Shown: positions 1,819-30,387 of the stretch, piece by piece | Layout: each line of letters starts with the position of its first letter | How positions within the stretch are numbered: the stretch's first letter is position 1 | From: Glaciecola sp. UBA1851 | GTDB taxonomy: Bacteria > Pseudomonadota > Gammaproteobacteria > Enterobacterales > Alteromonadaceae | Length of the DNA stretch: 32,000 nt | Assembly (NCBI GenBank): GCA_002338515.1 | Contig: DDIL01000005.1 | Location: 1 to 32,000 of the forward strand | Direction of reading: 5' to 3' | Position numbers and translations under genes: made by a program | Notes under the pieces: generated by a model | Databases searched by the model: none | What the model was told of the DNA's origin: nothing | Seen by the model: only the letters and a program-made list of their open reading frames with translations

Positions 1819-3413
1819 ACTCAGTAAAAAGGCAACCATCGGCCTTTAAACTCTTTGTAACCCTTGCTTTAGCCATTGTGCACTTGCTTGCTGGATTTTC
1901 AATTTTGTTGGTCTCATCTTGGTTCATTGCCGCTTGCAGTATTGCAGGTGTTGGTTTTAACTATATGCTTCCAGCTGTTGTAATAAGAGCGCTAGCCTTA
2001 ATTAGAATAAGCTCTGGCTATTTTTCTATGCTAGTTGGTCATTATCACTTGCTCTCTAATTTGGCGATGATTCGTTTAAATCTTTTTGCCAGTTTAGAAA
2101 ATAAGGTAACTGTTTCAAGACAGTCGTCGTTAGACGCACTTAATCATCAAAGTGAGGAAGTAGCGTCCATTTGGATTTCATGGGTAGGGCAAAACGCAGG
2201 GGCATTATTATCACTGGTTTGTCTAAATGTAATTAGCTTTATTTTTATCCCATCAATAAGCAACATTATTGTGTTGTTTAGTGGTGCTTTTGTCATTATT
2301 TACTGTGTTTTATTATGGTCAATGATTCAAAGTAGTAGCGAGTTGGTAAGTGCTAAAGAGGCGTTTCAATTTGATATGGTCAAACATATTGAATGCGCTT
2401 CTTTATGGCATTTATACCAAGAATACGATGTAAATCCTCCTCGATTACGTGTACTAATTGATTTAGAAAAAAAGTTAAAATTAAGAGTAAGACTGGCGGC
2501 ATTTAGTTTGTTTGTTGCTGCTATTGCGTGTATTTCCGTTATTTTTTCTTTATACAGTGCACCGCTCTTAGGAAATCCGATATTTGTGCTTATCCCAATA
2601 ACATTACTTAGCATTAACGATTGGTTGAGCCCAACTTTAAATAGTCTAAATCAGTTGTTGAAATTTAAAGAAGCAAAAAAAGCAATTGATTCAACAAGTA
2701 AAAATTTAAGCGTTCTAAAAACAAACCATGCAAGTATTTTAGGTTTTGAGCTTCGAAATTTTAGACCTTGCAACACAAGAATGAATGCAATCAATGCCCG
2801 TTTTAATTCTAGTGGGGCACATATTATTACTGGTGGTTCAGGGTCGGGTAAAAGTCGTTTTTTACAAGCTTTAATGGGGTTAATTCCTTTTGAAGGAAAC
2901 CGAGGTGTGCTTACATCGAATACAACAACTAACCTTCTTTCTACAACTAACAATACATTATTAACTGATTGCTTTTATGTTGAGCAGTTCCCTTATATTT
3001 TATCGGATACCTTGCGTAGTAACCTATTAATTGTGAACACGCAGGCAACCGAGAACCAGCTTATTCATTGTCTGAATTTGGTGGGCTTAGGTCATTTGAG
3101 AAATTTAGAAGAATGGCTAGGTGAAAATGGAAGACAACTTTCAGGTGGAGAGATGAAACGAATAGGATTAGCAAGAGCATTGCTATCAAAAAGTAGTGCA
3201 ATTTTAATAGATGAGCCATTTGAAGCTCTAGATCAAAGTAATATTCGTTTAGTTGTGAAATTATTAAATAAACTAGCGATGGAAAAAATAATTTTGGTGG
3301 CCACTCATATTATTCCCAAAGAGCTTAACATTGGGCAACGTGTTTCTTTAGACGATAACTTTTCCGATATACAAAGCAACACTTTATCCACAGGGGTATT
3401 AAAAAATGAATAA
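1815..3413 (+). CDS. cydC: ABC transporter CydC
   Basis: Transmembrane half plus an ABC ATPase. Motifs: Walker A GGSGSGKS, signature LSGGEMKRIGLAR, Walker B ILIDEPFEALD. ATGA overlap with cydD. Confidence 0.8.
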   Translation: MNSVKRQPSAFKLFVTLALAIVHLLAGFSILLVSSWFIAACSIAGVGFNYMLPAVVIRALALIRISSGYFSMLVGHYHLLSNLAMIRLNLFASLENKVTVSRQSSLDALNHQSEEVASIWISWVGQNAGALLSLVCLNVISFIFIPSISNIIVLFSGAFVIIYCVLLWSMIQSSSELVSAKEAFQFDMVKHIECASLWHLYQEYDVNPPRLRVLIDLEKKLKLRVRLAAFSLFVAAIACISVIFSLYSAPLLGNPIFVLIPITLLSINDWLSPTLNSLNQLLKFKEAKKAIDSTSKNLSVLKTNHASILGFELRNFRPCNTRMNAINARFNSSGAHIITGGSGSGKSRFLQALMGLIPFEGNRGVLTSNTTTNLLSTTNNTLLTDCFYVEQFPYILSDTLRSNLLIVNTQATENQLIHCLNLVGLGHLRNLEEWLGENGRQLSGGEMKRIGLARALLSKSSAILIDEPFEALDQSNIRLVVKLLNKLAMEKIILVATHIIPKELNIGQRVSLDDNFSDIQSNTLSTGVLKNE

Positions 3414-4278
3414 ATTAGGCGTGCGTCCATTTTTTGATAAAGAGACTCATACTGTTACTTATGTTGTAACAGACAATGCAAGTAAGCATGCTGCTGTTAT
3501 CGACCCGGTACTCAATTTCAACGCTAGTACAGGTGGCCTTTGTTCTTGTTCTGCAGACAAAATAATTGAGTATTTAGATGATAATAACTTGCAGCTTGAA
3601 TGGATATTAGAAACTCATGCGCATTCTGATCACTTAACGGCTTCAAAATATCTAAAGGAAAAACGTGGTGGACAAATAGGGATAGGCGAACATATTAAAA
3701 AAGTACAAAGTACGTTTAAAAAGACCTTCAATTATAATAGTGAGATGCCTTGTGATGGCAGCCAATTTGACCAATTGTTTGAAGATGGTGAAGTTATCTA
3801 TTTAGGTCATATAGCCATTGAAATTATGCATACTCCAGGTCACACCCCAGCATGTGTTAGCTATAAATTTGAAGATACAATATTTGTAGGAGACACCTTG
3901 TTTATGCCCGACTATGGAACGGCAAGAGCAGACTTTCCCAATGGAAGTGCTAGGTCACTGTATCAGTCAATTCAGCGTATTTTATCCTTACCTAATTCTA
4001 CAAGAATGTTTGTTGGTCACGACTATAAAACCAATACAAAACGAAATTATGCTTGGGAAACATCAGTACTTCAACAAAAGCGAAATAATATTCATTTAAA
4101 AGATGGTATGACGGAACAAGCGTTCATTAAACTGCGAAATGCTAAAGATGCCACGCTAGAGGTTCCCAAACTTTTAATGTCGGCTATGCAGGTAAATATT
4201 AGAGCAGGGTGTTTACCAGAAAAAGAAGATAATGGGGTCAGCTACTTAAAAATGCCATTAGTTTTAGAATTAAGTTAA
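3406..4278 (+). CDS. MBL-fold metallohydrolase, persulfide dioxygenase (ETHE1/Blh)-like
   Basis: HxHxDH metal motif (THAHSDH). N-terminal FFDKETHTVTYVV..AAVIDPV and GDTLFMPDYGTARADFPNGSARSLYQSI resemble persulfide dioxygenases. The ATG at 3406 overlaps the cydC stop (3411-3413). The next gene is a DUF442 protein, and the two are fused in Blh proteins. Confidence 0.65.
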   Translation: MNKLGVRPFFDKETHTVTYVVTDNASKHAAVIDPVLNFNASTGGLCSCSADKIIEYLDDNNLQLEWILETHAHSDHLTASKYLKEKRGGQIGIGEHIKKVQSTFKKTFNYNSEMPCDGSQFDQLFEDGEVIYLGHIAIEIMHTPGHTPACVSYKFEDTIFVGDTLFMPDYGTARADFPNGSARSLYQSIQRILSLPNSTRMFVGHDYKTNTKRNYAWETSVLQQKRNNIHLKDGMTEQAFIKLRNAKDATLEVPKLLMSAMQVNIRAGCLPEKEDNGVSYLKMPLVLELS

Positions 4279-4295
4279 AAAATAGGAGAGAAACC

Positions 4296-4706
4296 ATGAC
4301 GTTTGCATTAATTACTGATGAATTTTCAGTTTCAGGCGAGTTAACCGAGCAAGACTTTACTACTTTAAATAAGCTAGGCGTTTCTATGCTAATCAATGCT
4401 AGACCTGATAACGAAAATGATGGTCAGAAAAATGATGAAGATTTCAAAATATTGTGTGAAGCACATGGTATTGAATATGTACATGTACCCGTAAAGCCGG
4501 GTCAGTATTCACAAAATGATATTGAAAAAGTGGCAAACGCATTTAATGCGGCCAGTGGGAAAGTGCATGGGCTTTGTAAAACAGGCGCAAGAGCAGCGCA
4601 TTTATGGGCGCTCTCACAAAAAGAAGCGAAGTGTTTTGACGAACTACAGAAAAAAGCTCAAGCGCAAGGTTACGACTTAACTATGATTAAAAATCATTTT
4701 GAATAG
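4296..4706 (+). CDS. DUF442/TIGR01244-type phosphatase-fold (sulfurtransferase-like) protein
   Basis: 136 aa, with SVSGELTEQDF..L...GVSMLINARPDNE and a CX4R loop (HGLCKTGARAAHLWAL), typical of the DUF442 domain found in Blh proteins. An aggaga Shine-Dalgarno lies upstream. Confidence 0.65.
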   Translation: MTFALITDEFSVSGELTEQDFTTLNKLGVSMLINARPDNENDGQKNDEDFKILCEAHGIEYVHVPVKPGQYSQNDIEKVANAFNAASGKVHGLCKTGARAAHLWALSQKEAKCFDELQKKAQAQGYDLTMIKNHFE

Positions 4707-4709
4707 ACT

Positions 4710-5129
4710 ATGAAAAAACTAATTATTAGCTTGTTACTTTATGTTTCGTTTAGTGTTTTGGCCAATCAGAATGCTACTGAAATAGACAATAGAATAGTGA
4801 TTGAGTTAGAGCAGGAGCAAAAAGTGTTTGTTCTCTTACGTATGCGAAAAATGCTTGAAACTCTCACTAAAATGCAGGTTAAGTTACTTGAAGAAAACCT
4901 AGAGGCAACTCATGACCTAGCGTTAGAATTAATGAGGTTCACCGCTAAAAATCATCCCGATGGGCTAAGAGAGAGGATGCCTTTGCCGTTTCGAGCGATG
5001 AGTCAGTCTATGAACAAAAGCTGGAAAAAATTAAGTAAAAAGCAAACCAATAGCAAGGTTATTCAGCAAGAAATCATTAGCATCATGTCTACTTGTAATG
5101 CTTGTCATCAATCTTATAGAATTGAGTAA
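4710..5129 (+). CDS. periplasmic class II c-type cytochrome (cytochrome c-prime/c556-like)
   Basis: Signal peptide MKKLIISLLLYVSFSVLANQ. About 120 mature residues that look helical. A single CXXCH heme motif (CNACH) lies 9 residues from the C-terminus, which is the class II cytochrome c arrangement. Confidence 0.55.
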   Translation: MKKLIISLLLYVSFSVLANQNATEIDNRIVIELEQEQKVFVLLRMRKMLETLTKMQVKLLEENLEATHDLALELMRFTAKNHPDGLRERMPLPFRAMSQSMNKSWKKLSKKQTNSKVIQQEIISIMSTCNACHQSYRIE

Positions 5130-5131
5130 TA

Positions 5132-5434
5132 ATGAATATAAAAGAGTTTGAAGTTCAAAATGATAGTGCATTAATAAGCTTAAAAGCAATGGCGAATAAA
5201 TACAGATTGGGTATCTTATATTTATTAACCGAGCGTGATCAAAGCGTAAACGATTTAGCTTTGACTCTAGAATTACCGCAGCCGGTGGTGTCCCAACACC
5301 TTAAAGTATTGAAGGCTGCTGATATGGTATGTTTCACTAAAGACGGTGCGCAGCATAGTTATCGATTAGATAAAAAACAACTTGTCATGTCAGCCATGAT
5401 TTTCAAATTGTTTAACATAGAAACAGTCATTTAA
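5132..5434 (+). CDS. ArsR/SmtB-family winged-helix transcriptional regulator
   Basis: 100 aa. KALANKYRLGILYLL...SVNDLA..LELPQPVVSQHLKVLKAADMV is the ArsR HTH signature. Its ATG lies 2 nt after the preceding stop. Confidence 0.8.
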   Translation: MNIKEFEVQNDSALISLKAMANKYRLGILYLLTERDQSVNDLALTLELPQPVVSQHLKVLKAADMVCFTKDGAQHSYRLDKKQLVMSAMIFKLFNIETVI

Positions 5435-5535
5435 ACTGCACTTGGCCTTCTAATAAATGCAAGGAATAATGGCGTATGGTGTAGTTGGTTCATATTTTGC
5501 TAATGGTTGTATATCTAAACAACTTACTGAAAAAT

Positions 5536-6435
5536 ATGATGAGAAATATTATTCTTTTTGGCGCGGGTGCAGGCTCCAAAAATTATGTGCAGGCATGCAA
5601 AGACAATATCTTAGCGATTGCTGATAACAACTCAGGCAGAGTAGGCGAAACGATAGACAGTATCCCTATTATTGCGCCAAGTAGTATTGGTAATTATGCG
5701 TTTGATAATATTGTGATTACTTCGCAATGGGCTGAGGATATTAAGCTTCAACTTGTCAATGAGCTAGGCATACCAATAAGTGATATTGAGGTGCCTGCTA
5801 AGTTTGAGCTTAAAGGAAAAGCCCCAGCTTTTTCGGACCCTGCCACTCTGGAATTAGCGAACAATATATTAAAATCATTGTGTGATAGTGCATATAAAAA
5901 CAGTATCGAACTCTACATTGACTTCGGTACTTTGCTAGGTGTAGCGCGAGATAATACAGTGATGCCATGGGATGATGACATTGATTTTGCTATCACTAAA
6001 GTACCAGACCAAACCTTTCTTAATTGGCTTACTCAATGGCGAACCAGCCATCATTTACCCGTTACATTCGAGGTAGAAACCCGCAAAGATAAACATGACG
6101 ACTTTATTGATTTTGTCCTGAAATTTAGTCACCCCGATTATCAATCATTTCTGACAACTATATGCTACCGGAAAGAAGTGGACGGTCAGTCTTTGCATAT
6201 GCCGAGTTTAGGGCAATGGTTTGCCCCTCAAGTACATTTTTCTTCGCCTGACTATATTGAATGGCAGGGAATTAATGTCCAAGTACCTCATGATTACGAG
6301 AATTATCTTGAGTTTGTTTACGGTGATTGGAAAACACCGAAAAAGAACATGAGCATGACCGATTACGCGAATTTAAACGAATTAAACCACGAAGATGTAA
6401 CCGCTATGGGGATGGTTAGTGAAACAATTAAATAG
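5536..6435 (+). CDS. LicD-family phospho(no)-headgroup transferase with an N-terminal Rossmann-like extension
   Basis: [24 protein letters not shown] matches the LicD motif (G.LLG..R......PWDDD.D). I prefer the ATG-ATG at 5536 over the track's TTG start at 5485. The first ~95 aa ([13 protein letters not shown]...IAD....G..I..IP) resemble NeuD/PglD-type N-domains. Confidence 0.7.
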
Positions 6436-7732
6436 ACAAAATGAAAAGTTAGTTTATGTTGGAATGAGCGCTGACTTAGTGCATCCAGGACATATGAATA
6501 TTTTGAAAGTGGCTGCCGATTATGGTGATTTAGTGGTGGGTTTATTGACCGACAAAGCCATTGCATCATACAAACGATTACCCTATATGGCTTTTGAACA
6601 GCGCAAAGAAGTGATAGAAAATATTAAAGGCGTAACGCAAGTAATTGCCCAAGATACGCTTGATTATCGTCCGAATTTAGAAGCGGTGAAACCAGATTAT
6701 GTTGTGCATGGAGATGATTGGAAAACAGGGGTACAGGCGAAAACGCGGCAACAAGTATTAGATGTTTTAGCGCAATGGGGAGGCGAACTGATAGAACCCT
6801 CTTATACTCACGGTATTTCATCTTCTGCATTGAACCAATCACTAAAAGAAATTGGCACCACGCCTGATATTCGAAGGGGTAGACTAAAGCGTTTAATTCA
6901 AGCTAAGCCTATTGTCAGGATCATGGAATCTCATAATGCACTAAGTGGACTAATTGTTGAAAATGTAAAAGCGGATAATGGTGTTGAATTTGACGGTATG
7001 TGGAGTAGTTCGCTTACCGATTCTACATCAAAAGGTAAACCAGACATTGAAGCGGTAGATGTGAGTTCGCGTATGACTACCGTTAATGAAATTTTTGAAG
7101 TCACCACCAAACCTATGATTTATGACGCTGATACAGGTGGTATTCCAGAACACTTTGCCTTTACCGTTAGAACCCTTGAGCGTACAGGCATTAGTGCTGT
7201 TATTATTGAAGACAAAACCGGATTAAAGAAAAACTCTTTGTTTGGTAATGATGTGGCGCAAACTCAAGATACAATAGAAGGATTTTCTTTAAAAATTGCC
7301 ACAGGCAAAAAAGCGCAAGTGACGAAAGACTTTATGATTATTGCCCGCATTGAAAGTTTAATTCTTGATAAAGGATTAGATGATGCGATTGCCAGAGCAT
7401 TTGCATATATAAAGGCTGGAGCGGATGGCATAATGATCCACTCTCGACAATCGTCCCCAGATGAAATTATTGCGTTTTGTGAACAAATTCGAGCAGAGCA
7501 CACCGATATTCCAATTATTGTTGTACCCACTTCTTTTAATCAAATTACTGCCAAAGAATTAAGTGAAGTAGGTGTAAACGTTGTTATTTATGCCAATCAT
7601 ATGCTTCGCGCAGCCTATCCTGGGATGATGAATGTTGCCCAATCAATTCTTAGTCACGACAGAAGCTTTGAAGCGGAACATCAGTTATTATCTATAAAAG
7701 AAATACTCAATTTGATACCGGGTACTAAATAA
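6419..7732 (+). CDS. pepM: bifunctional phosphonate cytidylyltransferase (PntC-like) / phosphoenolpyruvate mutase
   Basis: The N-terminal ~140 aa have the cytidylyltransferase fold, with [16 protein letters not shown] (HxGH at 6482-6493). The C-terminal ~290 aa belong to the PEP mutase/isocitrate lyase superfamily and carry the PEP-mutase-specific EDKX5NS motif ([10 protein letters not shown], 7208-7237). GTG start at 6419; the first in-frame ATG (6464) would remove the first beta-strand. Confidence 0.85.
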
Positions 7733-8802
7733 TGGCACTGAATACTCAGTCTTTTATTCAATCACTTATTCGTGAAGGCTATACGCATTTGTGTGTTGTG
7801 CCTTGTAGTTTTGCTAAATATGTCATCAATGCAGCTATTAATTCACCGCACATAACCTATATGCCCTGTGCTAGCGAGGCTATTGCTTGCTCAAGCGCGG
7901 CAGGACTAAAAATAGCCGGTAAAAAACCGATTGTTATTGTGCAATCATCGGGCATGACTAATATGGGTTCATGTATCACTAGTTTATTAAAGCCATACCA
8001 TGTTTACTTTCCTATTCTAACTAGCTGGCGTACTTACAAAGAAGGCGATAGCGAGGTACAACATGCTCATCTTGCTACTTGTTTGCCTGAACTCATAAAC
8101 GCTTATGGTTATGAACATTCATTGCTAGATAAACAAGATGAAGTAAAAGCAATAGAGCAAATTAATCAAGCAGATGTATCACCTAGTATCATCATTATGA
8201 GTAGTGGAAGCTTTAGTGAAGTACAATTAGAAGAGAAACATAAAAACGACTTGTCAGAATACCTACCTAGAAGTCAATTTCTTACCCTGCTCAACAAAGG
8301 CTATAGTCACGAACATACTGTCATGGTGGGCACAACCGGCAATACCGCTCGCGAGATGTATCAGTTTATGCCAAACACAAATAACTTATACATGGCAGGT
8401 AACATGGGCGGTGCATTAAGTTTGGGTTTAGGTATAGCGTTAGCGGGTAAACCAGTTGTAGTATGTGGCGGTGATGCTGAATTTGTAATGCATATGGGTG
8501 GCATGACAACTGCAGGTCGCTATGCTGAAAATATGCAATTAATTTATATATTGTTTGATAATGAAGCCAATAAATCTACCGGTGGTCAAAACACATATCA
8601 ATCACATGTTAATTACAGCGGTATTGCCGAGTCATCGGGTTTCCAGTGTATTGAAAATACTATTAAAACAACAGCTGAATTTGAATTGTGCATGAAAGAA
8701 GTGAAAGATAAAACAGGCTTATATTTTATGCATATTAAATGTAGTTATGATGCGGAAACGCCTCGCCCACCAGTTGAAGTGGTTACCGCTTTACCATTAT
8801 GA
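7732..8802 (+). CDS. ppd: phosphonopyruvate decarboxylase (ThDP-dependent)
   Basis: 356 aa. The N-terminus (F...L...GYTHLCVVPCSFAK) and the ThDP motif (GGDAEFVMHMGG...LFDNEANKSTGGQ) are typical of Ppd/AepY. Its ATG shares one nucleotide with the pepM stop. Confidence 0.8.
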   Translation: MALNTQSFIQSLIREGYTHLCVVPCSFAKYVINAAINSPHITYMPCASEAIACSSAAGLKIAGKKPIVIVQSSGMTNMGSCITSLLKPYHVYFPILTSWRTYKEGDSEVQHAHLATCLPELINAYGYEHSLLDKQDEVKAIEQINQADVSPSIIIMSSGSFSEVQLEEKHKNDLSEYLPRSQFLTLLNKGYSHEHTVMVGTTGNTAREMYQFMPNTNNLYMAGNMGGALSLGLGIALAGKPVVVCGGDAEFVMHMGGMTTAGRYAENMQLIYILFDNEANKSTGGQNTYQSHVNYSGIAESSGFQCIENTIKTTAEFELCMKEVKDKTGLYFMHIKCSYDAETPRPPVEVVTALPL

Positions 8803-9884
8803 ATAACGAATTTACTTATTGGCAACCTACAAAAATACAGTTTACCCATAATTGGTTAACAGCGCTTATTCCCCTTGTTAAAAATAGGCGCGTTTTATTG
8901 GTTACCTCAAAAGGTTTTGTTACGCGTGGTATTGTAGAGACGATAACGAGCAATATTCCAAGCGTAAGTTATGTGTGTGATAACATTGTTTCTCATCCTG
9001 AATTAAAGGATTTACAGAAAGCGTATAAAGACGCGCACGTTTATAAATATGACTGCATTATTGCAATAGGTGGCGGCAGTGTATTAGACGCCGCTAAATT
9101 TTTAAGTGTAATAATAAGTAATGCAGAGGGTAAATCAGCTATAGATTCAGTCACGCGTTTAGTAAAAGACTCAACTAGCGTTAGCGGTTACGCTACCTTA
9201 CCTATTATTGCTATTCCAACAACATCTGGTACGGGTAGTGAGGTAACGCCGTGGGCGACTATTTGGGATAGTGAAATAAAAAAGAAATATTCGCTGCATT
9301 TACCCACGTTATTTAGTGAAGCTGCTATTTACGACCCCAATTTAACCATCAGTTTACCGATAGATATTACGCGACAAACTGCACTAGATACACTTTCTCA
9401 TGCCCTTGAGTCAATATGGAATAAACATGCAACGCCCATCACTGTGCAGCATGCTATTACTGCTGCGCAATTAATTTATAAGCATTTACCTAGCTTATTG
9501 TTTGAGCCAACTAACCTTGCATTACGTGAACAAATAATGCTGGCGACTATGCATGCTGGCATGGCGTTTTCACAAACACAAACCGCTATGGCTCATGCAC
9601 TTTCATATTACATTACTGCAAATAAAGGTATACCTCATGGTATAGCCTGCAGCTTTACCTTGCCTATGTTAATAGATGAAGTAATTGGTCAATATGATTT
9701 TGTAGATAATGCATTAAAGGCTATTTTTACAGAGCTTTCTTCTGACCCACTTCGTGAGATGTATAAATCAATTGGACTATTAACTGAGTTTTCTGACTAT
9801 GGGTTGTCTGATTCTGAGGTAGTCAATTTAATTGAATCGGTTAATAACCAACCGCGCGCAAAAAATTCGTTAGTTTCACTTTAA
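8799..9884 (+). CDS. group III iron-dependent alcohol dehydrogenase, probable phosphonoacetaldehyde reductase (PhpC/FomC-like)
   Basis: GGGSVLDAAK, PTTSGTGSEVT and His-rich metal ligands (HALESIW, HAGMAF, MAHALSY). ATGA overlap with ppd. Its position after pepM-ppd matches 2-hydroxyethylphosphonate pathways. Confidence 0.7.
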   Translation: MNNEFTYWQPTKIQFTHNWLTALIPLVKNRRVLLVTSKGFVTRGIVETITSNIPSVSYVCDNIVSHPELKDLQKAYKDAHVYKYDCIIAIGGGSVLDAAKFLSVIISNAEGKSAIDSVTRLVKDSTSVSGYATLPIIAIPTTSGTGSEVTPWATIWDSEIKKKYSLHLPTLFSEAAIYDPNLTISLPIDITRQTALDTLSHALESIWNKHATPITVQHAITAAQLIYKHLPSLLFEPTNLALREQIMLATMHAGMAFSQTQTAMAHALSYYITANKGIPHGIACSFTLPMLIDEVIGQYDFVDNALKAIFTELSSDPLREMYKSIGLLTEFSDYGLSDSEVVNLIESVNNQPRAKNSLVSL

Positions 9885-9946
9885 GGTGTGTTGCTCTTTT
9901 CTCGCTGTGGAAACAGCAAAGTAAAGGGTGAGTAATAAGGAATGGC

Positions 9947-17924: not shown

Positions 17925-20906
17925 ATGAAAAACAGCAAAAATAATATAACCTTCGAGAATCAGCGCCCTCATTGGATGCGATTCAAAAAAACTATGGTAG
18001 CTGTGGGTATTAGTGCAGCCGTTGCACATACCCCTCTTTATGTGCATGCTCAAGAAACCTCAGAACAAGCGACTGAAGAAGAGTCTGCAGAGGTTATTAA
18101 TGTTAGAGGGCAACGACAAAGTTTGACTGCTGCCCAAGAACTTAAACGAAATGCTGATACCTTCCTTGACGCAATTTCAGCATCAGATTTAGGCGCTCTT
18201 CCTGATGCTAGTGTTGTTGAAGCATTACAACGTGTTCCAGGTATTACAATAGAGCGGTTTGCTGCACCTGATGACCCAGACCATTTCTCAACGGAGGGCA
18301 GTGATGCAACACTTCGTGGCCTTCCTCAAACTCGTACCGGAATTAACGGGCGCGATAGCGTTGCCGCAGATTCATCAAATGGTTTAGGTTTCGATGACAT
18401 TTCACCTCAATTGCTTGGAAGTGTTGAAATTTATAAAAACCAAACTGCTGATATGATTGAAGGGGGTATTGCAGGTACTATTAACTTGAATACCCGCAAA
18501 CCTTTTGATTCTTCATCTCGAATTCTTAATTTTGAGTTGCAAGGCAGTGAAGGTAACTTATCAAAAGAACCCACATACGGGTTTTCTGGTTTATATTCTG
18601 ATGTATTTGACGTTTCAAGTGGTGAGGTAGGTGTATTGGTGAGCTATAGCTCGGTAGACCTAACGTTTAGAGCCGATGGGGCGGAGCTAGGCCAGCATAA
18701 TTTAGTGGCTGATGCTGCGGGTGCCGGGCAAGACAGATGGACACCTATCAATGCAGGCGTTCGCTCAACTACTACTGATCGTGAACGTGAAGCTGCCTCC
18801 TTTACTTTGCAGTATCAAAATTCTGACGAAACCTTTTTATCTACGTTTGAATATATTCTATCAGACTCAGCAACAAATTGGTCAGAGCATGCATTCTTTT
18901 CAGATGATCAAGCTTATACAAGCTTAGGTGATGATGTTACGTTTGGTAACGAATCATTTACTGGCGGTACACTACAAGGTATTCAAGATGGCTTAGGCCC
19001 GCAAACACGCAAAAGTTCAAGCGAAGAAAAGCTAGAAGAATTTACTTTTAACGTTGCATATAAGCCAACTGATCGTTTAACACTTGAGTTTGATGTGCAA
19101 TATGTTGATGCTACTACCGACGTAGTAGATTTATCAGTATTTGGCGGCATTATTCCTAGGCTTGGCGGTATCGATATTGAAGTAGACGCAATGGGCGATA
19201 CTCCAGTTGTTGGCTTTAGGGCACCCTCTGGTTCTGGCCTAAGCGATGCTGAATTTTTCAGCGACCCTAAGAACTATTTCTATCGTGCAGCCATGGACCA
19301 CGTTGAAGAATCTGAAGGCGATCAAAGTGCATTTCAGTTTGATGTAGACTATGAACTAGAGCATGACATGCTAGATTCAGTTGAAGTAGGCGCGCGTTAT
19401 GCTGAGCGTGATCAAACAACACGTTGGTCAACCTATAATTGGCAAAACTTATCTGCCGAATGGGCCGGTGGTTGGGTTGATTTTAATGGTGACAGAATAC
19501 AACCATCTTGGAATGGCGATACAGCATTTCAGCCAACGGGTGAAACCTTGGATACCCCCGGATTTGAGTCATTTGCCTATCCGGGCTTTCACAATGGTAA
19601 TGCTGGAAGTCCTATAAACAGCCTGTTTGCGTCGTTTAATAGTGTACAAAGCTATGATACATTTTTACAAAGCTATTCTGCCTTTAACTTTCCAAGTTTG
19701 GGTACAAGGGGGGATGTGGTAGATGGCAGTATTTATCGCCCTGCTGAGCTTAACCGTGTGGTAGAGGAAAACACGGCGTTTTACGCTAAGTTAAATTTTG
19801 GTGGTGATTCTCGTGTCTCGGGCAACGTAGGATTAAGGTACGTCAACGTAGATACGTCGGTAGATGGTGGCGAAACTTTCCCTGTTCAGCTATCTGACAA
19901 TCTTGTATTAACTGCGGATGAAATGGCGTTTTTCAATGATGCGAGTATTGTTAGGTCAACCAGCAACAGTTACAGCGCTGTATTGCCTAGTTTGAACGTA
20001 AAATACCTTCTTGGCGATGATTTACTTCTTCGTTTTGCTGCATCAAAATCTGTGGCGTTTGCTGACACGGGTAACTTACGGTACAACTATAACTACACAA
20101 CAGATACAATTGAAATTGACCCAGATGTTGATATGTCACCTGTACGCATTGATCAAATAGAAAGGCGAAGTGGCAATCCATTCTTAGCTCCCATGGAGTC
20201 AATTGACTTAGACTTGTCAGTAGAGTGGTACTTTGATGAGGGTGATTCACTTACAGTGGGTGTTTTCCATAAAGATATTGAAGGTTTTTTCTCAAACGAT
20301 ACTTTCAGTCAGCAGGTAACCAACAATGGAGTAACTTTACCTGTACAGGTAAGTACCACAATTAATGTAGGCAGTGGCACTTTAAAAGGTCTAGAAATAG
20401 GCTATCAGCAGTTCTTTGACGAGTTGCCGGGTTTATTTAGTAATTTAGGCTTACAATTCAACGCAACATTCTTAAGGGAAAGTGGTACACCTAATCAAAA
20501 TACCCGTCCTGTCCAATCAGGTGGGGAAGACGATGTGGCCAGAGCCGAATTGCCGTTTGAAGGTTTGCCTCTGCAAGGTTTGTCTGAAACAACATACAAT
20601 ATTGTGGGTTTGTATGAAGATGATGTTATTTCTGCTCGTTTAGCTTATAACTATCGCTCAGATTATTTATTGACTGTTCGTCAAACTAACCTCGGTATAC
20701 CTATTTTTAACCAGGCTCGAGGTCAACTCGATGGGTCTGCTTTTTATAGTATTACAGATAATATTGAAGTGGGTATTCAGGGGCAAAACTTAACCAAGTC
20801 TGAGTCAAATACGCGTATGCAAGTGGACCAGGAAGGGACAACGGTGGTCAGATCGTCATTTACGAATGACCGAAGATTATCGTTAATTGTAAGAGGTCGA
20901 TTCTAA
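17925..20906 (+). CDS. TonB-dependent outer-membrane receptor (carbohydrate/oligosaccharide type)
   Basis: Signal peptide ending VHAQE. Acidic linker and TonB-box-like EVINVRGQRQS. Plug motifs (DAISASDLGALPDASVVEALQRVPGITIER, GSVEIYKNQTADMIEGGIAGTINLNTRKPF). Long beta-barrel ending in ...LIVRGRF with a terminal Phe. Shine-Dalgarno aggaag. Confidence 0.9.
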   Translation: MKNSKNNITFENQRPHWMRFKKTMVAVGISAAVAHTPLYVHAQETSEQATEEESAEVINVRGQRQSLTAAQELKRNADTFLDAISASDLGALPDASVVEALQRVPGITIERFAAPDDPDHFSTEGSDATLRGLPQTRTGINGRDSVAADSSNGLGFDDISPQLLGSVEIYKNQTADMIEGGIAGTINLNTRKPFDSSSRILNFELQGSEGNLSKEPTYGFSGLYSDVFDVSSGEVGVLVSYSSVDLTFRADGAELGQHNLVADAAGAGQDRWTPINAGVRSTTTDREREAASFTLQYQNSDETFLSTFEYILSDSATNWSEHAFFSDDQAYTSLGDDVTFGNESFTGGTLQGIQDGLGPQTRKSSSEEKLEEFTFNVAYKPTDRLTLEFDVQYVDATTDVVDLSVFGGIIPRLGGIDIEVDAMGDTPVVGFRAPSGSGLSDAEFFSDPKNYFYRAAMDHVEESEGDQSAFQFDVDYELEHDMLDSVEVGARYAERDQTTRWSTYNWQNLSAEWAGGWVDFNGDRIQPSWNGDTAFQPTGETLDTPGFESFAYPGFHNGNAGSPINSLFASFNSVQSYDTFLQSYSAFNFPSLGTRGDVVDGSIYRPAELNRVVEENTAFYAKLNFGGDSRVSGNVGLRYVNVDTSVDGGETFPVQLSDNLVLTADEMAFFNDASIVRSTSNSYSAVLPSLNVKYLLGDDLLLRFAASKSVAFADTGNLRYNYNYTTDTIEIDPDVDMSPVRIDQIERRSGNPFLAPMESIDLDLSVEWYFDEGDSLTVGVFHKDIEGFFSNDTFSQQVTNNGVTLPVQVSTTINVGSGTLKGLEIGYQQFFDELPGLFSNLGLQFNATFLRESGTPNQNTRPVQSGGEDDVARAELPFEGLPLQGLSETTYNIVGLYEDDVISARLAYNYRSDYLLTVRQTNLGIPIFNQARGQLDGSAFYSITDNIEVGIQGQNLTKSESNTRMQVDQEGTTVVRSSFTNDRRLSLIVRGRF

Positions 20907-20925
20907 ACATCCCCTTCTCAAATTT

Positions 20926-20970
20926 AGCTGTAGGTGCTATGTTTATGGTATCTACAGCTTGTTTGTTTTT
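20926..20970 (+). terminator. possible leaky intrinsic terminator/attenuator between the receptor and the halogenase-fold genes
   Basis: An 8-bp stem, agctgtag (20926-20933) pairing with ctacagct (20952-20959), followed by tgtttgttttt. The 18-nt loop is long, so the structure is weak. Confidence 0.3.
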
Positions 20971-21008
20971 GGCGGCGTAATTACCTAAGAGTCTATTTTA
21001 AAGAGTGT

Positions 21009-22565
21009 ATGCAAAGTAATTCCATCAAAAAAATAGTGATTGTTGGTGGCGGGACAGCCGGTTGGATGACCGCCGCTGCATTGTCATCGTTACTAGATAA
21101 GACACAGGTTTCCATATCCCTAATTGAATCCGAGCAAATTGGTACAGTGGGGGTTGGCGAAGCGACCCTTCCTCATCTACGGTTTTTTATCAAGCGCCTT
21201 GGTATTGATGAACAAGAGTTTATGCGCCGCACTAATGCAACGTATAAAACGGGCATTGAGTTTATTAATTGGGGGCAAGTAGGTGAAAGTTACTTGCATC
21301 CATTTGGTGATTTCGGTCAAAGCATCAATAGCGTTGATTTTCATCATTACTGGGTAAAACAGCGACAAACAGGAGACAAAACCGATATTGGCGATTATTC
21401 CCTGCCAGTTGTAGCATCAAAAATGGGTAAGTTTGATTACCCTAGTTCTGACGAGCAATCTATTTTATCTACGTTTTCTTACGCTTTTCATTTAGATGCA
21501 GGGCTGTTCGCCAAGTTTCTACGAGAATACTCTGAAGAAAAAGGTGTAGTGCGTACTGAAGGATTGATCAAACACGTCAAACAAGACGACAAAACAGCTT
21601 TCATATCATCAGTGACCTTAGACAGTGGCCAGTCAATTGAAGGTGACCTATTCATTGATTGCTCAGGCTTTAGAGGGTTGTTAATCGAACAAACACTTAA
21701 AACGGGTTACGATGATTGGCGACATTGGTTGCCATGCGACCGAGCAATTGCCATTCCTTGCGAAACCATGAGTGCGCCTTTACCCTATACTAAAGCAACC
21801 GCACGTGATGCTGGATGGCAGTGGCGTATACCGCTGCAAAATAGAGTAGGAAATGGTCATATTTATTCTAGTTCATATATGGACGATACGACGGCATTAG
21901 ATGTTTTATTACAAGGCTTGGATGCTAAACCTACAGGTGATCCAAATTTCCTACGTTTTACCACAGGAAGGCGTAAAAAAGCATGGAATAAAAACTGTGT
22001 GGCAATTGGTCTGTCAGGTGGGTTTTTAGAACCTCTTGAAAGTACCAGTATTCATCTTATTCAACTGGGTATCATGAAATTGTTAGAATTTTTCCCAGAC
22101 AAGCATTGCGATGAAATAAAAAGCGCAGAATACAATCGCATGATGAGTTTAGAATTTGAACGCTTACGTGATTTTTTAGTGCTGCATTATCATGCAACAA
22201 GACGAAATGACACAGATTTTTGGAACTATGTGCGTACTATGAGCTTACCAGATGGACTCGAACATAAAATGGAATTGTTTAAAGAACGTGGGCATGTTGT
22301 GCAATATACTGAAGGCTTATTTTTAAAAGCAAGTTGGCTTGCTGTCTATTTGGGGCAGGGGGTCATACCTACCCATTATGATTACAATGTGGATGCTCAA
22401 CCTCAAGCAAAAGTTGAAAACTTCTTAAAACAGCTTAAAGGTAATATTTCTGATGCAGCCGCGGGTATGAATGACCACGCTATAAGTTTAGCAAATCATT
22501 GCGATATAAACGTTAATCAAACTCCACCTCCAGCTAGTATGAGTTTATATGGAAGAGACGCTTAA
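21009..22565 (+). CDS. flavin-dependent tryptophan-halogenase-fold protein, paralogue 1 (motifs intact)
   Basis: IVIVGGGTAGWM (GxGxxG, 21045-21062), GVGEATLP, TYKTGIEF, FIDCSGFRGLLIE, GWQWRIPL (WxWxIP), GGFLEPLESTSIHL. The ATG at 21009 (MQSNSIKK...) is preferred over the track's 20934 start. Confidence 0.85.
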   Translation: MQSNSIKKIVIVGGGTAGWMTAAALSSLLDKTQVSISLIESEQIGTVGVGEATLPHLRFFIKRLGIDEQEFMRRTNATYKTGIEFINWGQVGESYLHPFGDFGQSINSVDFHHYWVKQRQTGDKTDIGDYSLPVVASKMGKFDYPSSDEQSILSTFSYAFHLDAGLFAKFLREYSEEKGVVRTEGLIKHVKQDDKTAFISSVTLDSGQSIEGDLFIDCSGFRGLLIEQTLKTGYDDWRHWLPCDRAIAIPCETMSAPLPYTKATARDAGWQWRIPLQNRVGNGHIYSSSYMDDTTALDVLLQGLDAKPTGDPNFLRFTTGRRKKAWNKNCVAIGLSGGFLEPLESTSIHLIQLGIMKLLEFFPDKHCDEIKSAEYNRMMSLEFERLRDFLVLHYHATRRNDTDFWNYVRTMSLPDGLEHKMELFKERGHVVQYTEGLFLKASWLAVYLGQGVIPTHYDYNVDAQPQAKVENFLKQLKGNISDAAAGMNDHAISLANHCDINVNQTPPPASMSLYGRDA

Positions 22566-24167
22566 GTGAGTGAGCATGACCGAGGGCCTATTCAAAATAT
22601 TTGCATTTTGGGTAAACATTTACATGTCGCTTCAGTCGCCGCCGCGCTCAGCCGTAAATTTATGCAGCAAAATATTAATATTATAGCGGTTAACACTGAG
22701 GGTAACGATAAATCAGTTTATGGTGAAGCTTCACTTAGTGCACTTCATTATTTTCATCGCTTTTTGGGGCTAAAAGAGCATCAAATGATGGCGGTAACCA
22801 GCGCAACTTACAAACTTGCATCGCAATATAAAAGGTGGTCATGCAGTGAGGCTAATGACACTAGCGAAAAAAACAAGCATTCCTCTTTCTATCATTCGTT
22901 AAGTAGTTACGGAAGTATGATTGATTCAATTGCTTTTGTTCATCATTTGACCAAACTTCGCCAAAACAATAAAAACTATGACTTTACCTGCTTCTCATTG
23001 CCTGCAGTCATGGCGCGAAACGGTAAGTTTGCTAAACCTGAATCGGCACAGTCAGCATTACCCTATAGCTATGCAATGCACATTGATGCAACCTCCTATG
23101 CTAAGGGTATGCAGGATTACGCAACTAAGCTAGGCGTTAAGTTTATATCTAGTAATATAGATAACGTACAGCTCAAATATATTGAAAATAATCTCGGTCA
23201 ACCTTCCGCGCACGTAAAACAAGTAACCTTGAGCGATGGCAGGCAAATAAAATCTGAATTATTTATCGATTGTACTAGCGATGGTGAGTTAATTGACAAG
23301 GCATTAAACGTTGGTTTTGAAGATTGGAGTGAGTATTTACCTTGTGATCGTTTTTTGACATGCAAAACAGAGTTAGATTTACAATTACAGCCTTCTACAA
23401 ATATGAATTTGCACAAAAATGGATGGGAACGCAGTTTTCCTCTGCAAAATGGAACCGTAAAAGAATTCTTTTACTCAAGCAAATACTTAAGCGATGATGA
23501 AGCGGTAAAAGAATTTGAAGTTAATCATTTAAAAGATACTAAAATCCTAAGTGAATGCCGTATAGAAAAACAAAGGACAGGTCGTCGAAAACAATTTTTT
23601 AGTGGTAATTGCGTGTCTATGGGAGGAGCAGCAGGCAGTTTAGATAGACTGGCCGTTAGTGATTTTCATTTAGTGCAATCAGCTGTATTGCGCTTAATTG
23701 ACTTATTTCCTGATACCTCGTTAGGTCAGTTTGCAGATAATTTTAGCCGCAATGAATATAATCATTTATGTACCGAAGAATATGCACGTATTTTAGATTA
23801 TCACGGCGCACATTTTGCTATCCCAGCAAAAGAAGCTGATGAATCCTGTAGCCAATTTTGGCAAGCGCAAAAAACAGCAATATTACCCGACTCACTTGTA
23901 AAAAAATTTAATTTATTTGAGGCCTGTGGGCGTATACCTTTTTATGAAAGGGAAACGTTTTCTAGTTCAACTTGGGTGTCATTATTATTGGGTTTAGGCA
24001 TGCATCCAAAAAGTTATGATGTGTTATTAGATATGCCTCCAGCTAGCAATGAACGAAGCATAAAAGCAATAAACAACATTATGAATACAATCAAGGATAT
24101 AAGTGATCGCGCCCCCTCTCATGCCCAATACTTGCGCCAGTATTGTGTACGACGAAACAATAGGTAG
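22566..24167 (+). CDS. tryptophan-halogenase-fold paralogue 2, with degenerate FAD-binding and catalytic motifs (probable pseudo-enzyme)
   Basis: Collinear with its neighbours (FIDC, TGRRK, YLPCDR and LFPD retained). However, GxGxxG reads ILGKHLHV, GVGEAT reads VYGEAS, WxWxIP reads GWERSFPL, and EPLEST reads SLDRLAVSD. The GTG start directly abuts the paralogue 1 stop. Confidence 0.75.
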   Translation: MSEHDRGPIQNICILGKHLHVASVAAALSRKFMQQNINIIAVNTEGNDKSVYGEASLSALHYFHRFLGLKEHQMMAVTSATYKLASQYKRWSCSEANDTSEKNKHSSFYHSLSSYGSMIDSIAFVHHLTKLRQNNKNYDFTCFSLPAVMARNGKFAKPESAQSALPYSYAMHIDATSYAKGMQDYATKLGVKFISSNIDNVQLKYIENNLGQPSAHVKQVTLSDGRQIKSELFIDCTSDGELIDKALNVGFEDWSEYLPCDRFLTCKTELDLQLQPSTNMNLHKNGWERSFPLQNGTVKEFFYSSKYLSDDEAVKEFEVNHLKDTKILSECRIEKQRTGRRKQFFSGNCVSMGGAAGSLDRLAVSDFHLVQSAVLRLIDLFPDTSLGQFADNFSRNEYNHLCTEEYARILDYHGAHFAIPAKEADESCSQFWQAQKTAILPDSLVKKFNLFEACGRIPFYERETFSSSTWVSLLLGLGMHPKSYDVLLDMPPASNERSIKAINNIMNTIKDISDRAPSHAQYLRQYCVRRNNR

Positions 24168-24175
24168 TTATATTT

Positions 24176-25738
24176 ATGAATACACCACAAAATGCAGTCA
24201 ACCAAGCAAAAAATGATAATCAAGTTCGTGATATTTTAATAGTCGGTGGTGGTACCGCTGGGTGGATGGTTGCTGCGGCTTTAGCAAAGAATTTTGGTAA
24301 TAAGGGCCGAAAAATAAGACTCATTGAGTCAGAAGAGATTGGTACAGTGGGAGTGGGTGAAGCAACCATTCCTTTTATTCGTACCTTTAATCAATTGCTA
24401 GGTATTGATGAAAACGAGTTTGTAAGGGAAACAAAAGGTACGTTTAAGCTAGGAATTGAATTCAATGACTGGGGCAAATTGGGTGACAGCTATATTCATC
24501 CATTTGGTGTATATGGTTCACCCATGGCCGACAATATACCCTTTCATCACTATTGGCTAAAACTCAGAAATGAAGGCATTGAAACTAATCTTTCAGATTA
24601 TTCATTAGCTATAATAGCCGCGAAAAAGGAGCGGTTTAGCCGTCCTGTCAATATTCAAAACTCACCTATGGCGTCGCTTAATTATGCTTTTCAATTTGAT
24701 TCTGGTTTATATGCTAAATTTTTACGCAAGTTTGCAGAAAGTCGAGGTGTAGAAAGGGTCGAAGGTAAAGTTAGTTCTGTTCAGGTAAATCAAGATACCG
24801 GTTATATTGATTCAGTGACGATGCAGAATACGTCAAGTGATATAGCAGGCTCGGTTAAATATCACGCTGATTTCTATATTGATTGCTCAGGATTTAGAGG
24901 CTTGTTAATAGAAGGAGCTTTGCATACTGGTTATGAAGACTGGACGCATTGGCTTCCTTGTGACCGCGCTGTTGCAGCACCTTGCGCTGCAAATGGAGAA
25001 CCCTTACCCTATACACGCTCAACCGCTAGAAAAGCAGGATGGCAATGGCGTATACCGCTACAACATAGAACCGGAAATGGGCATGTATTCAGTAGTCAGT
25101 ATATGAGTGTTGATGAAGCAACATCTATTTTACTTAATAGTCTTGATGGAGAATTACTTGCCGAGCCCAAAGTGTTAACATTCCAAACGGGACGGCGCAA
25201 AAAAACGTGGAACAAAAACTGTCTTGCTATTGGTTTGTCAGGTGGCTTTATGGAGCCTCTGGAAAGTACTAGTATTCATTTAATTCAATCAGCCATCGCT
25301 AGACTAATAAGCCTATTTCCAGATAAAGATTTCAATGACGCTATTGTTAACCGGTTTAACGATGAGTCTAAATGGGAATATGAACGCATTCGTGACTTTT
25401 TAATACTACACTATAAGCTTAATCAACGTACCGATTCAGAGTTTTGGATGTACTGTCAAAATATGGCGATTCCCGATTTTCTGCAGAGCAAACTCGACCT
25501 ATATCGTAGCAGCGGGCATATTTTTAGAGATAATGAAGAGTTATTTGGCATTCCGAGCTGGTTAGCTGTAATGGAGGGGCAAAACTTTCATGCAGATGGT
25601 TGCCATCCTTTACCTGACGCAAGGGAATCGAGTCGATTGCATGAGCATTTATTAAAAATAGGTTCCGTAATCGACAGGTGCGCAGATAGTATGCCTACTC
25701 ATGCTGAGTTTATTAATAAACATTGTAAAGCTAGTTAA
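24176..25738 (+). CDS. flavin-dependent tryptophan-halogenase-fold protein, paralogue 3 (motifs intact)
   Basis: ILIVGGGTAGWM, GVGEATIP, TFKLGIEF, YIDCSGFRGLLIE, GWQWRIPL, GGFMEPLESTSIHL. Starts 8 nt after the paralogue 2 stop. Confidence 0.85.
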   Translation: MNTPQNAVNQAKNDNQVRDILIVGGGTAGWMVAAALAKNFGNKGRKIRLIESEEIGTVGVGEATIPFIRTFNQLLGIDENEFVRETKGTFKLGIEFNDWGKLGDSYIHPFGVYGSPMADNIPFHHYWLKLRNEGIETNLSDYSLAIIAAKKERFSRPVNIQNSPMASLNYAFQFDSGLYAKFLRKFAESRGVERVEGKVSSVQVNQDTGYIDSVTMQNTSSDIAGSVKYHADFYIDCSGFRGLLIEGALHTGYEDWTHWLPCDRAVAAPCAANGEPLPYTRSTARKAGWQWRIPLQHRTGNGHVFSSQYMSVDEATSILLNSLDGELLAEPKVLTFQTGRRKKTWNKNCLAIGLSGGFMEPLESTSIHLIQSAIARLISLFPDKDFNDAIVNRFNDESKWEYERIRDFLILHYKLNQRTDSEFWMYCQNMAIPDFLQSKLDLYRSSGHIFRDNEELFGIPSWLAVMEGQNFHADGCHPLPDARESSRLHEHLLKIGSVIDRCADSMPTHAEFINKHCKAS

Positions 25739-25953
25739 CCTGAACTCGGGATAAGCAAACCCGTCCAGCAGCGCTATTAGAGCGAATAATTGCGTTACCA
25801 AACTAAGCAATAGAATAACTTTAATTGACTTTACCGCCTTGTTCTTCACTTTAATACAATCACTGAATTATGATATTAATTTGCTTATCTCGAATTGAGG
25901 TTAAATTATACCATTAGTATTGTTTTAGAATTAAAGAGGATATTACACCGTGC

Positions 25954-27039: not shown

Positions 27040-27127
27040 ATAGCCCCCCTGAGAGCTTTTTAATTGAGGCTATTGGAATTCAATAGCACCTCATTATTGT
27101 TCTGATATTATCTATTTCGATGTAAAA

Positions 27128-27141
27128 TGTAAACGCTTACA
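27128..27141. promoter_or_regulatory. LacI-family (XylR-like) operator in the divergent GH5/GH10 intergenic region
   Basis: TGTAAACGCTTACA, 87 bp upstream of the GH5 start codon and 372 bp upstream of the GH10 start codon. Confidence 0.5.
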
Positions 27142-28652: not shown

Positions 28653-28688
28653 CAGCATTCTTTATTCTTATTTTTGGATTATATACTA

Positions 28689-30323: not shown

Positions 30324-30338
30324 TATTTAGTTATAAGA

Positions 30339-30387
30339 TTAGGGTCTGTTGATCTTTACTGTATGAATTTTGTTCAACAGACCCTAA
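30339..30387 (+). other. long hairpin (14-bp perfect stem, 21-nt loop) immediately after the GH43 gene
   Basis: ttagggtctgttga (30339-30352) pairs perfectly with tcaacagaccctaa (30374-30387). Confidence 0.5.

Follow-up and report, generated by a model that had tools for sequence, protein, structure and literature searches.

A four-gene operon of an Alteromonadales-like marine bacterium predicted to make, activate and transfer 2-hydroxyethylphosphonate

Phosphonate surface pathways and the operon of the window

The decoration of bacterial surfaces with phosphonates has been laid out for 2-aminoethylphosphonate (AEP), for which cytidylyl activation is followed by LicD transfer (Rice 2019, PMC6697681). 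In this AEP Pnt pathway, the phosphonate is made by Ppm, Ppd and the AEP transaminase (AEPT), cytidylylated by PntC and transferred to the surface by a LicD-like protein (PMC6697681). The PhpC type, which leads to 2-hydroxyethylphosphonate (HEP), accounts for 8.5% of 434 ppm neighbourhoods in complete genomes, including those of Helicobacter cinaedi and Campylobacter jejuni (Li & Horsman 2022, PMC8942020), and the isolated HEP-type products are just the methylphosphonate product of Nitrosopumilus and the HEP-exopolysaccharide of Stackebrandtia (PMC8942020). In TARA metagenomes, phpC reaches 64-76% of the abundance of pepM (Lockwood 2022, PMC9381506). Here we describe an operon in a 32,000-nucleotide stretch of Glaciecola sp. 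UBA1851 (contig DDIL01000005.1, positions 1 to 32,000; the window), the four genes of which follow the same logic of synthesis, cytidylylation and LicD transfer, and which, judging from its sequence, is likely to make HEP, activate it and transfer it onto an acceptor of the cell envelope.

The window sequence is identical in the scaffold TARA_SAMEA2189670_METAG-scaffold_394 and in Logan contigs of SRR5321253. The sequence seen amounts to ~42 kb of this 61.6-kb scaffold, with end portions of ~14.7 kb and 5 kb lying outside. An earlier note on this DNA had placed an alcohol dehydrogenase (ADH) gene overlapping ppd at 8799-9884. This open reading frame (ORF) was found on the + strand (361 aa, ATG start), and its start codon and the stop codon of ppd are both contained in ATGA at 8799-8802. 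The successive overlaps along licD, cyt-pepM, ppd and adh are 17, 1 and 4 nt, indicating that the four genes (5485-9884, +) form a single compact operon:

5485..6435, + strand: licD, proposed CMP-HEP:acceptor phosphonotransferase; Pfam LicD; start at TTG 5485 or ATG 5539
6419..6868, + strand: cytidylyltransferase (CyTase) domain (PF01467) of the PepM fusion, proposed HEP cytidylyltransferase; Fom1-type, GTG start
6869..7732, + strand: phosphoenolpyruvate (PEP) mutase domain (PepM/Ppm), C-P bond forming; TIGR02320, PF13714, EDKxxxxxNS motif
7732..8802, + strand: ppd/aepY, thiamine diphosphate (ThDP)-dependent phosphonopyruvate decarboxylase; best family TIGR03297, TPP domains
8799..9884, + strand: adh, PhpC-type group III metal-dependent ADH, proposed phosphonoacetaldehyde reductase from family, residues and synteny

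In the proposed pathway, in which all of the enzymatic activities are predicted from the sequence, the PepM domain would convert PEP to phosphonopyruvate, and Ppd would decarboxylate the latter to phosphonoacetaldehyde (PnAA), thereby pulling the unfavourable mutase equilibrium. The ADH would then reduce PnAA with NAD(P)H to HEP, the branch-point step that is done by the AEP transaminase in AEP cassettes, and the fused Fom1-like CyTase would convert HEP and CTP to CMP-HEP. From this putative donor, LicD would transfer the hydroxyethylphosphonyl group to a hydroxyl of a glycan, glycolipid or glycoprotein acceptor encoded elsewhere, giving a phosphonate ester in the cell envelope. The operon thus differs from the AEP Pnt pathway at two points. 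The branch-point enzyme is an ADH instead of a pyridoxal phosphate (PLP)-dependent transaminase, so that the head group would carry OH rather than NH3+, and the CyTase is of the PF01467 Fom1 type, whereas PntC is of the PF12804 LicC type. We regard HEP as the probable head group of the cassette.

Branch-point reductase and activating enzyme

The earlier note had assigned the ADH to group III from two motifs and its His ligands, and this assignment was borne out. The protein matches the Pfam families Fe-ADH (PF00465, 1e-36) and ADH_Fe_C (PF25137, 2e-26), which represent the group III fold, contains the GGGS NAD(P)-binding motif, and carries GGGSVLDAAK at residues 91-100, PTTSGTGSEVT at residues 140-150 and the metal ligands D197, H201, H266 and H280. 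It aligns over its full length, at 52-58% identity, with hundreds of proteins, and 100-odd columns are invariant in a 13-sequence alignment, indicating that adh is a genuine gene rather than a fortuitous ORF. Among the NCBIfam models, TIGR03405 (phosphonate-associated Fe-ADH) scores best, with 357 bits against 177 bits for the runner-up family. The closest named homologues (52-58% identity) are labelled 'phosphonoacetaldehyde reductase', a name that NCBI also uses for the Aliarcobacter homologues, and apart from its own metagenomic copies the ADH is at most 58% identical to anything.

The residues proposed to bind metal and substrate are conserved. The PhpC of P. fungorum has been characterised as highly specific for HEP/PnAA; its metal ligands are D191/H195/H260/H274 and its HEP clamp is K157/R349/T256/Y264, roles that derive from an AlphaFold3 model and not from a crystal structure (PMC13576164, 2026). 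When the ADH was aligned with this enzyme, the gene for which was recovered in locus L064, all eight positions were identical, the clamp of the window protein being K163, R353, T262 and Y270. The eight residues are also invariant across 13 close and six distant homologues (alignments A1 and A2). Among solved structures, the best homologue is a sulfoacetaldehyde reductase (6JKO), in which a Phe is aligned to Y270. The corresponding Tyr264 is described as strictly conserved among PhpC enzymes, with Phe in its place in sulfoacetaldehyde reductase (PMC13576164).

The PhpC, FomC and DhpG reductases (EC 1.1.1.309; Shao 2008) and the P. fungorum PhpC share with the window ADH PF00465, TIGR03405 as the best model, and the metal ligands and K/R/T/Y clamp. 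The identity to the P. fungorum species enzyme is 41%, and the Streptomyces enzymes are likened by family, not by alignment. As in the antibiotic clusters, adh lies directly 3' of ppd; the context here is a LicD transfer cassette, in contrast to the antibiotic pathways or degradative operon in which the PhpC/FomC/DhpG genes and the P. fungorum gene are located. In addition, adh is genomically linked to both pepM and ppd, the linkage on which phpC genes were accepted by Lockwood (2022, PMC9381506). All of the available in silico tests therefore support the prediction that the ADH is a PhpC-type phosphonoacetaldehyde reductase.

The note's further claim, that the cassette contains no aminotransferase-like ORF, agreed with our scans. 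The Pfam scan of the window covered all ORFs with 200 aa or more, plus four of the 10 shorter antisense ORFs (80-114 aa, nested inside annotated genes), and no PLP aminotransferase, including class V (PF00266, PhnW/AEPT), was found among them. No aminotransferase was called in the 10 kb 5' of the window on the source scaffold either.

The note's account of the cassette lacked the CyTase that is fused to PepM. This domain matches the Pfam family CTP_transf_like (PF01467, 7.5e-14), and in comparison with PDB 5X3D, the CyTase domain of Fom1, 87 of 137 residues are identical (64%, E 3e-57), with the HPGH and GISS motifs present. The Fom1 CyTase forms CMP-HEP from HEP and CTP (Cho 2017, as cited in PMC6697681), and homologues bear the JGI name 'PEP phosphomutase / 2-hydroxyethylphosphonate cytidylyltransferase'. 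Fom1 of Streptomyces wedmorensis has the same architecture as the window protein, an N-terminal PF01467 CyTase with HxGH and GISS motifs fused to PepM. The window lacks the Fom3, Fom4 and FomD partners of the Fom1 pathway, and CMP-HEP is a transient handle for methylation in that pathway, whereas here it is the proposed donor for LicD. Together, the CyTase and the ADH complete a coherent predicted pathway. A CyT-PepM with 81% identity to that of the window (P0277) is found on a TRINITY contig from a eukaryotic transcriptome in EukProt, as bacterial contamination or a symbiont transcript.

The two enzymes upstream of the branch point were assigned as follows. The PepM domain exceeds the TIGR02320 cut-off of 319.6 with 410 bits, matches PF13714 at 4e-57, and contains EDKxxxxxNS, a motif diagnostic of PEP mutase (PMC6697681). 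For Ppd, the best family is TIGR03297 (198 bits; 89 bits for the next family), both TPP_enzyme_N and TPP_enzyme_C are present, and the protein is 62-67% identical to the product of the gene at the same position in at least 20 related loci.

Related loci, the LicD transferase and alternative readings

A scan with the ADH alignment, using one genome per GTDB species, yielded 472 relatives, with no match above 56% identity in that scan, and the best 80 were analysed. Synteny was compared in the 33 closest (at least 43% identity) together with two Helicobacter loci, also at 43%. CyT-PepM, Ppd and ADH occurred in exactly the window order in 25 of these loci, which came from Campylobacterota, Bacteriovoracaceae, Marinamargulisbacteria, Desulfuromusa kysingii, Fibrobacter and unclassified metagenome-assembled genomes (MAGs). 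The full four-gene order with licD first was found in Aliarcobacter skirrowii (L004), in L007, L009, L010, L021 and L026, and in many metagenome contigs; in three Helicobacter genomes, a canonical LicD instead lies 3' of the three-gene core. The other neighbours in the related loci are glycan genes (NeuB, DegT, epimerases, GT2, GT4 and flippases). The Pfam families listed there (25 of 64) and a screen with the DegT HMM revealed no class-V aminotransferase, just DegT sugar aminotransferases.

The A. skirrowii locus (GCA_033796345.1) is identical to the window in the order and domain architecture of the four genes, with identities of 82-84% for CyT/PepM, 64% for Ppd, 58% for ADH and 41% for LicD. 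Its cassette is inside a nonulosonic-acid/glycosylation locus (NeuB, CMP-sugar synthetase, DegT, AMP-binding, SDR), unlike that of the window, which stands alone in a gammaproteobacterial background between a sulfide-detoxification/cydDC operon and a GGDEF gene. In L004 (1-11083), L009 and L010, the cassette lies immediately 3' of genes for NeuB, the CMP-sugar synthetase (CTP_transf_3), DegT, an AMP-binding enzyme and an SDR. By analogy, this arrangement hints that the acceptor in Campylobacterota could be a sugar of the pseudaminic- or legionaminic-acid type, for example on flagellin or lipooligosaccharide.

Other arrangements were also observed. In two Sulfurimonas MAGs, a TagF-like CDP-glycerol glycerophosphotransferase (PF04464; L006 4825-5973, L019 ~6028-7287) directly follows the ADH and replaces LicD, suggesting that transferases of more than one family may draw on the same activated phosphonate. 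Four loci of Bacteroidota, Paenibacillus and Bacillales (L023, L027, L031 and L035) encode a PepM with a C-terminal NTP_transf_3 domain (LicC/PntC-type), Ppd, a separate NTP_transferase and ADH, which by domain content is a HEP-type cassette with another class of nucleotidyltransferase. In a Helicobacteraceae MAG (L020, 2149-4474), CyT-PepM is followed by ADH with no Ppd detectable between them, and the PepM domain is 43% identical; this locus represents either a different chemistry or a degraded cluster.

LicD has an N-terminal Rossmann-like extension of ~110 aa, and gene callers favour ATG 5539 (298 aa) over TTG 5485 as its start. The match to Pfam PF04991 (1e-11, 46 bits, gathering cut-off 22.6) covers only profile positions 3-66 of 227, and there is a weak C2185-like_N match. 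The DFGTLLG..RD and WDDDID motifs are conserved (alignment A3), and the acidic DxD-like motif is present. The sole NCBIfam match is the Mycoplasma diacylglycerol cholinephosphotransferase Mf1, at 58 bits against a cut-off of 225, and a PDB sequence search retrieved no solved homologues. With no predicted membrane segment, the protein appears by eye to be cytoplasmic. The phosphocholine transferases of S. pneumoniae and H. influenzae share the Pfam LicD core and a DxD-type acidic motif with it, and like them it is predicted to transfer a CMP/CDP-activated head group. The window LicD differs from them in the additional Rossmann-like domain and the partial profile match, and its proposed donor is the phosphonate CMP-HEP instead of CDP-choline.

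LicD is 38-46% identical to the products of licD genes located directly 5' of CyTase-PepM in Campylobacterota and metagenome contigs. In metagenomes, 13 of 20 full-length relatives of the subfamily lie beside or near CyT-PepM, and an ADH is present in every locus with enough sequence (11/11); the N-extended LicD subfamily is thus tightly linked to the HEP core. Our literature search found no characterised LicD-type phosphonate transferase or CMP-HEP transferase. On five metagenome contigs (L090, L106, L108, L115 and L126), an N-extended LicD is followed by a stand-alone CyTase-like gene, 26-33% identical to the window CyTase, without PepM; these LicDs presumably transfer a different head group.

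Several points weigh against a HEP-transfer operon. Neither the ADH nor Ppd reaches the curated cut-off of its best model (423.7 for TIGR03405 and 312.5 for TIGR03297), and the functions assigned to proteins of the cassette clade come from sequence comparison. Clusters with an AEP transaminase likewise include PF01467-PepM fusions (PMC8942020, GCF 743), so that the fused CyTase by itself is no proof of HEP specificity. The aminotransferase screen of the related loci was non-exhaustive, and a PhnW-type transaminase could be encoded elsewhere in the genome, beyond the ~42 kb of scaffold seen. The reaction of PhpC-type enzymes can run in both directions, and some of these enzymes act in catabolism (PMC13576164). 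Finally, no glycosyltransferase or polysaccharide genes adjoin the cassette in the window, and the proposal places the acceptor genes elsewhere. Regarding the ADH score, calibration of TIGR03405 with cassette-linked ADHs gave 366 bits for Aliarcobacter, 352 for Desulfuromusa and 314 for Helicobacter, all under the cut-off, and 497 bits for the characterised catabolic P. fungorum species enzyme, indicating that the cut-off is tuned to the Burkholderiales PsrA/PhpC branch. On this comparison, the cut-off of the model, now named PsrA, separates a Burkholderiales branch from the biosynthetic cassette branch and not real from false PnAA reductases, and we treat the low score as a property of the model, not as evidence against the predicted function.

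With only part of one metagenomic scaffold visible, the final head group might instead be AEP, the commonest surface phosphonate (PMC6697681), made by a PhnW/AEPT encoded elsewhere, with the ADH serving as a side-branch enzyme that buffers or detoxifies the reactive aldehyde; the occurrence of fusions of the same kind in AEPT clusters fits this scheme. We consider it improbable, since the ADH is the invariant third gene in the 25 related loci, in which the screen revealed no class-V aminotransferase, adh is translationally coupled to ppd through the ATGA overlap, and the CyTase shares 64% identity with the HEP-specific domain of Fom1. HEP could also be a mere intermediate, which MpnS, HEPD or a Fom3-like methyltransferase encoded elsewhere would turn into methylphosphonate, hydroxymethylphosphonate or another derivative before transfer. 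There are precedents, as CMP-HEP is transient in fosfomycin biosynthesis (PMC6697681), and HEP is the precursor of methylphosphonate in marine microbes, with both esters present in marine dissolved organic matter of high molecular weight (HMW-DOM), according to the work cited in PMC9381506. Since scans of the window detected no MpnS/HEPD-like or radical-SAM gene and the compact four-gene unit recurs without such genes, we regard this scheme as very unlikely.

The remaining two readings concern the ADH and the acceptor. The ADH might be a generic or otherwise specialised group III dehydrogenase that merely neighbours ppd (acting on sulfoacetaldehyde, lactaldehyde or, like B. cenocepacia PsrA, a lipid aldehyde), or it might oxidise HEP to PnAA in catabolism. 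Its score below the TIGR03405 cut-off, a sulfoacetaldehyde reductase as the best solved homologue, and the catabolic and non-phosphonate members of the family (PMC13576164) would all be compatible with this, as would the Burkholderiales homologues (~40% identity), in which adh stands alone without pepM or ppd, a context that matches the catabolic or PsrA-type enzymes of PMC13576164. Nevertheless, we judge it highly improbable: all four phosphonate-clamp residues are kept, including the Tyr that is Phe in sulfoacetaldehyde reductase, synteny is strict with a start/stop overlap with ppd, the below-cut-off score is common to the whole biosynthetic clade, and PhnX, PhnA and PhnY are all missing from the window, which accordingly has no catabolic route. 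Less removed from our proposal is a small soluble or lipid phosphonate as the product, such as a HEP-containing phosphonolipid, with LicD acting on diacylglycerol or a glycolipid. Although Mf1 is the sole NCBIfam match of LicD (far under its cut-off) and no glycan genes flank the cassette in the window, the cassettes of the relatives are embedded in glycan loci (NeuB, DegT, GT2, GT4, flippase), and we hold such a product to be rather unlikely. It is a variant of the envelope-decoration proposal, differing only in the acceptor, and does not contradict it.

Taken together, the family assignment, the clamp residues, the synteny and the Fom1-like CyTase support in silico the earlier note's suggestion that an ADH of the PhpC/FomC/DhpG type replaces the AEP transaminase and supplies HEP for transfer by LicD.

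Neighbouring genes, origin and implications

Two further features flank the operon genes:

5442..5470, + strand: possible sigma-70-like promoter (TTGGCC-17-AATAAT) between the ArsR-family gene and licD; 9/12 consensus match, weak
9891..9931, no strand assigned: imperfect hairpin, possible bidirectional terminator; -16.3 kcal/mol, z = -1.9, no U-run, weak

The promoter is weak evidence because it is a consensus match only and the number of sigma-70-like sites in the cassette region did not exceed that in shuffled sequence in our promoter scan. The hairpin sits in the 62-nt gap that separates the convergent adh and GGDEF genes, and it was not called in a terminator scan of the region.

The genes flanking the operon are, by their predicted functions, unrelated to phosphonates. 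On the 5' side are a cydDC-like ABC exporter, a split Blh-type persulfide dioxygenase and sulfurtransferase, and an ArsR/BigR-like regulator; on the 3' side are a convergent 7TMR-GGDEF gene, a TetR-RND efflux system and a TonB-dependent receptor, followed by three tryptophan-halogenase-family genes, GH5, GH10 and GH43 hydrolases and an MFS transporter. Within 3406-5434, two separate ORFs, their order swapped, represent the Blh-type bifunctional sulfurtransferase/persulfide dioxygenase (NF040641): 3406-4278 encodes its MBL dioxygenase part and 4296-4706 its DUF442/sulfurtransferase part. Next come a 139-aa ORF that weakly matches cytochrome c' and the ArsR/BigR-like regulator (5132-5434). These sulfur genes all lie 3' of the cydDC-like ABC genes and cytochrome bd, and the region resembles a sulfide-detoxification unit that directly abuts the phosphonate operon. 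A locus for xylan utilisation in the gammaproteobacterial style occupies 17925-31961, with the TonB-dependent receptor, the three halogenase-family genes in tandem (20934-25738), GH5, GH10 (xylanase), GH43 (beta-xylosidase) and an MFS_2 sugar transporter. Its xylan-degradation genes fit a polysaccharide-degrading lifestyle.

The flanking RND pump is 56-59% identical to its best named relatives, from Pseudoalteromonas, Aliiglaciecola, Aestuariibacter and an 'Alteromonadales bacterium', and 64-74% identical to metagenomic relatives, pointing to an uncultured marine, Alteromonadales-like gammaproteobacterium as the host, in line with the earlier note. The flanking genes stay under 60% identity to every named organism. 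Relative to the Campylobacterota cassettes, the identities are 79-84% for the CyT/PepM domains, 62-67% for Ppd, 52-58% for ADH and ~40% for LicD. In a neighbour-joining tree of concatenated CyT-PepM, Ppd and ADH, the window copy sits on a long branch outside a Campylobacterota-dominated clade, with which it and the Fibrobacter copy form an unresolved trichotomy; its identity to this clade is 65-69%, versus 70-85% within the clade. The nearest relatives of the cassette are from Campylobacterota, and its grouping with cassettes dominated by that phylum suggests an old horizontal acquisition; on the tree and identities the window copy is a recent import from no sampled lineage. In the same tree, the core of a Candidatus Marinamargulisbacteria MAG (L017) falls within the Campylobacterota clade, apparently through a recent transfer across phyla, which indicates that the cassette moves between phyla.

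Neither repeats nor composition gave convincing signs of mobile elements around the cassette (GC 0.36-0.40 inside vs 0.37-0.42 outside). A 15-nt imperfect direct repeat at 5123-5137/9929-9943 (TGAGTAATAATGAAT/TGAGTAATAAGGAAT, 14/15) brackets the ArsR gene and the phosphonate operon; with 17 similar two-copy families in 5.5 kb, it is within noise and probably due to chance. An empty-site comparison was uninformative: relatives that share the RND pump (66-74%) keep the TetR/membrane-fusion genes, with no synteny further upstream.

The earlier note had called a gammaproteobacterial HEP cassette with LicD unusual, which was overstated because the architecture is catalogued (PMC8942020, PMC9381506) and common in marine metagenomes. 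The pepM-aepY-phpC arrangement is recorded in Pelagibacterales, Prochlorococcus, Thaumarchaeota, Oceanospirillales, Arenimonas donghaensis and Desulfuromusa kysingii, and LicD genes, as 'lipopolysaccharide choline phosphotransferase', are recorded in such neighbourhoods (PMC9381506). The D. kysingii locus of that work is L022 in our set. Both Oceanospirillales and Arenimonas belong to the Gammaproteobacteria. The part of the claim that stands is that no gammaproteobacterial close relative of the cassette was found in the GTDB-species and metagenome scans. The locus therefore represents a known, catalogued kind of pathway and is distinctive to a modest degree, in its gammaproteobacterial background, the minimal stand-alone operon, the divergent ADH and the N-extended LicD subfamily linked to the HEP core. 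Since genome-mining surveys already hold the pathway logic, it leaves the current understanding unchanged.

The predicted product resembles two described materials. The HEP-exopolysaccharide of Stackebrandtia nassauensis/Glycomyces (as described via PMC8942020) carries HEP as an ester on a polymer at or outside the cell surface, as predicted here, the comparison being one of products. The polysaccharides of marine HMW-DOM carry HEP and methylphosphonate esters (via PMC9381506), which, according to earlier work cited there, represent as much as 20% of HMW-DOM phosphorus. These esters constitute a large store of organic phosphorus in the sea that turns over slowly, and they serve as a substrate for the aerobic production of methane. 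The makers of HEP-decorated polymers and the transferase they use are poorly known, and the locus offers a minimal, directly testable four-gene cassette, which also shows the crossing of phylum boundaries. Tentatively, a polysaccharide-degrading, probably particle-associated marine gammaproteobacterium may decorate its envelope or exopolymers with HEP esters by means of a horizontally acquired, self-contained four-gene module. If so, copiotrophic heterotrophs would be a direct biological source of the HEP esters in marine HMW-DOM, and the N-extended LicD subfamily would be the first dedicated CMP-hydroxyethylphosphonate:acceptor phosphonotransferase.

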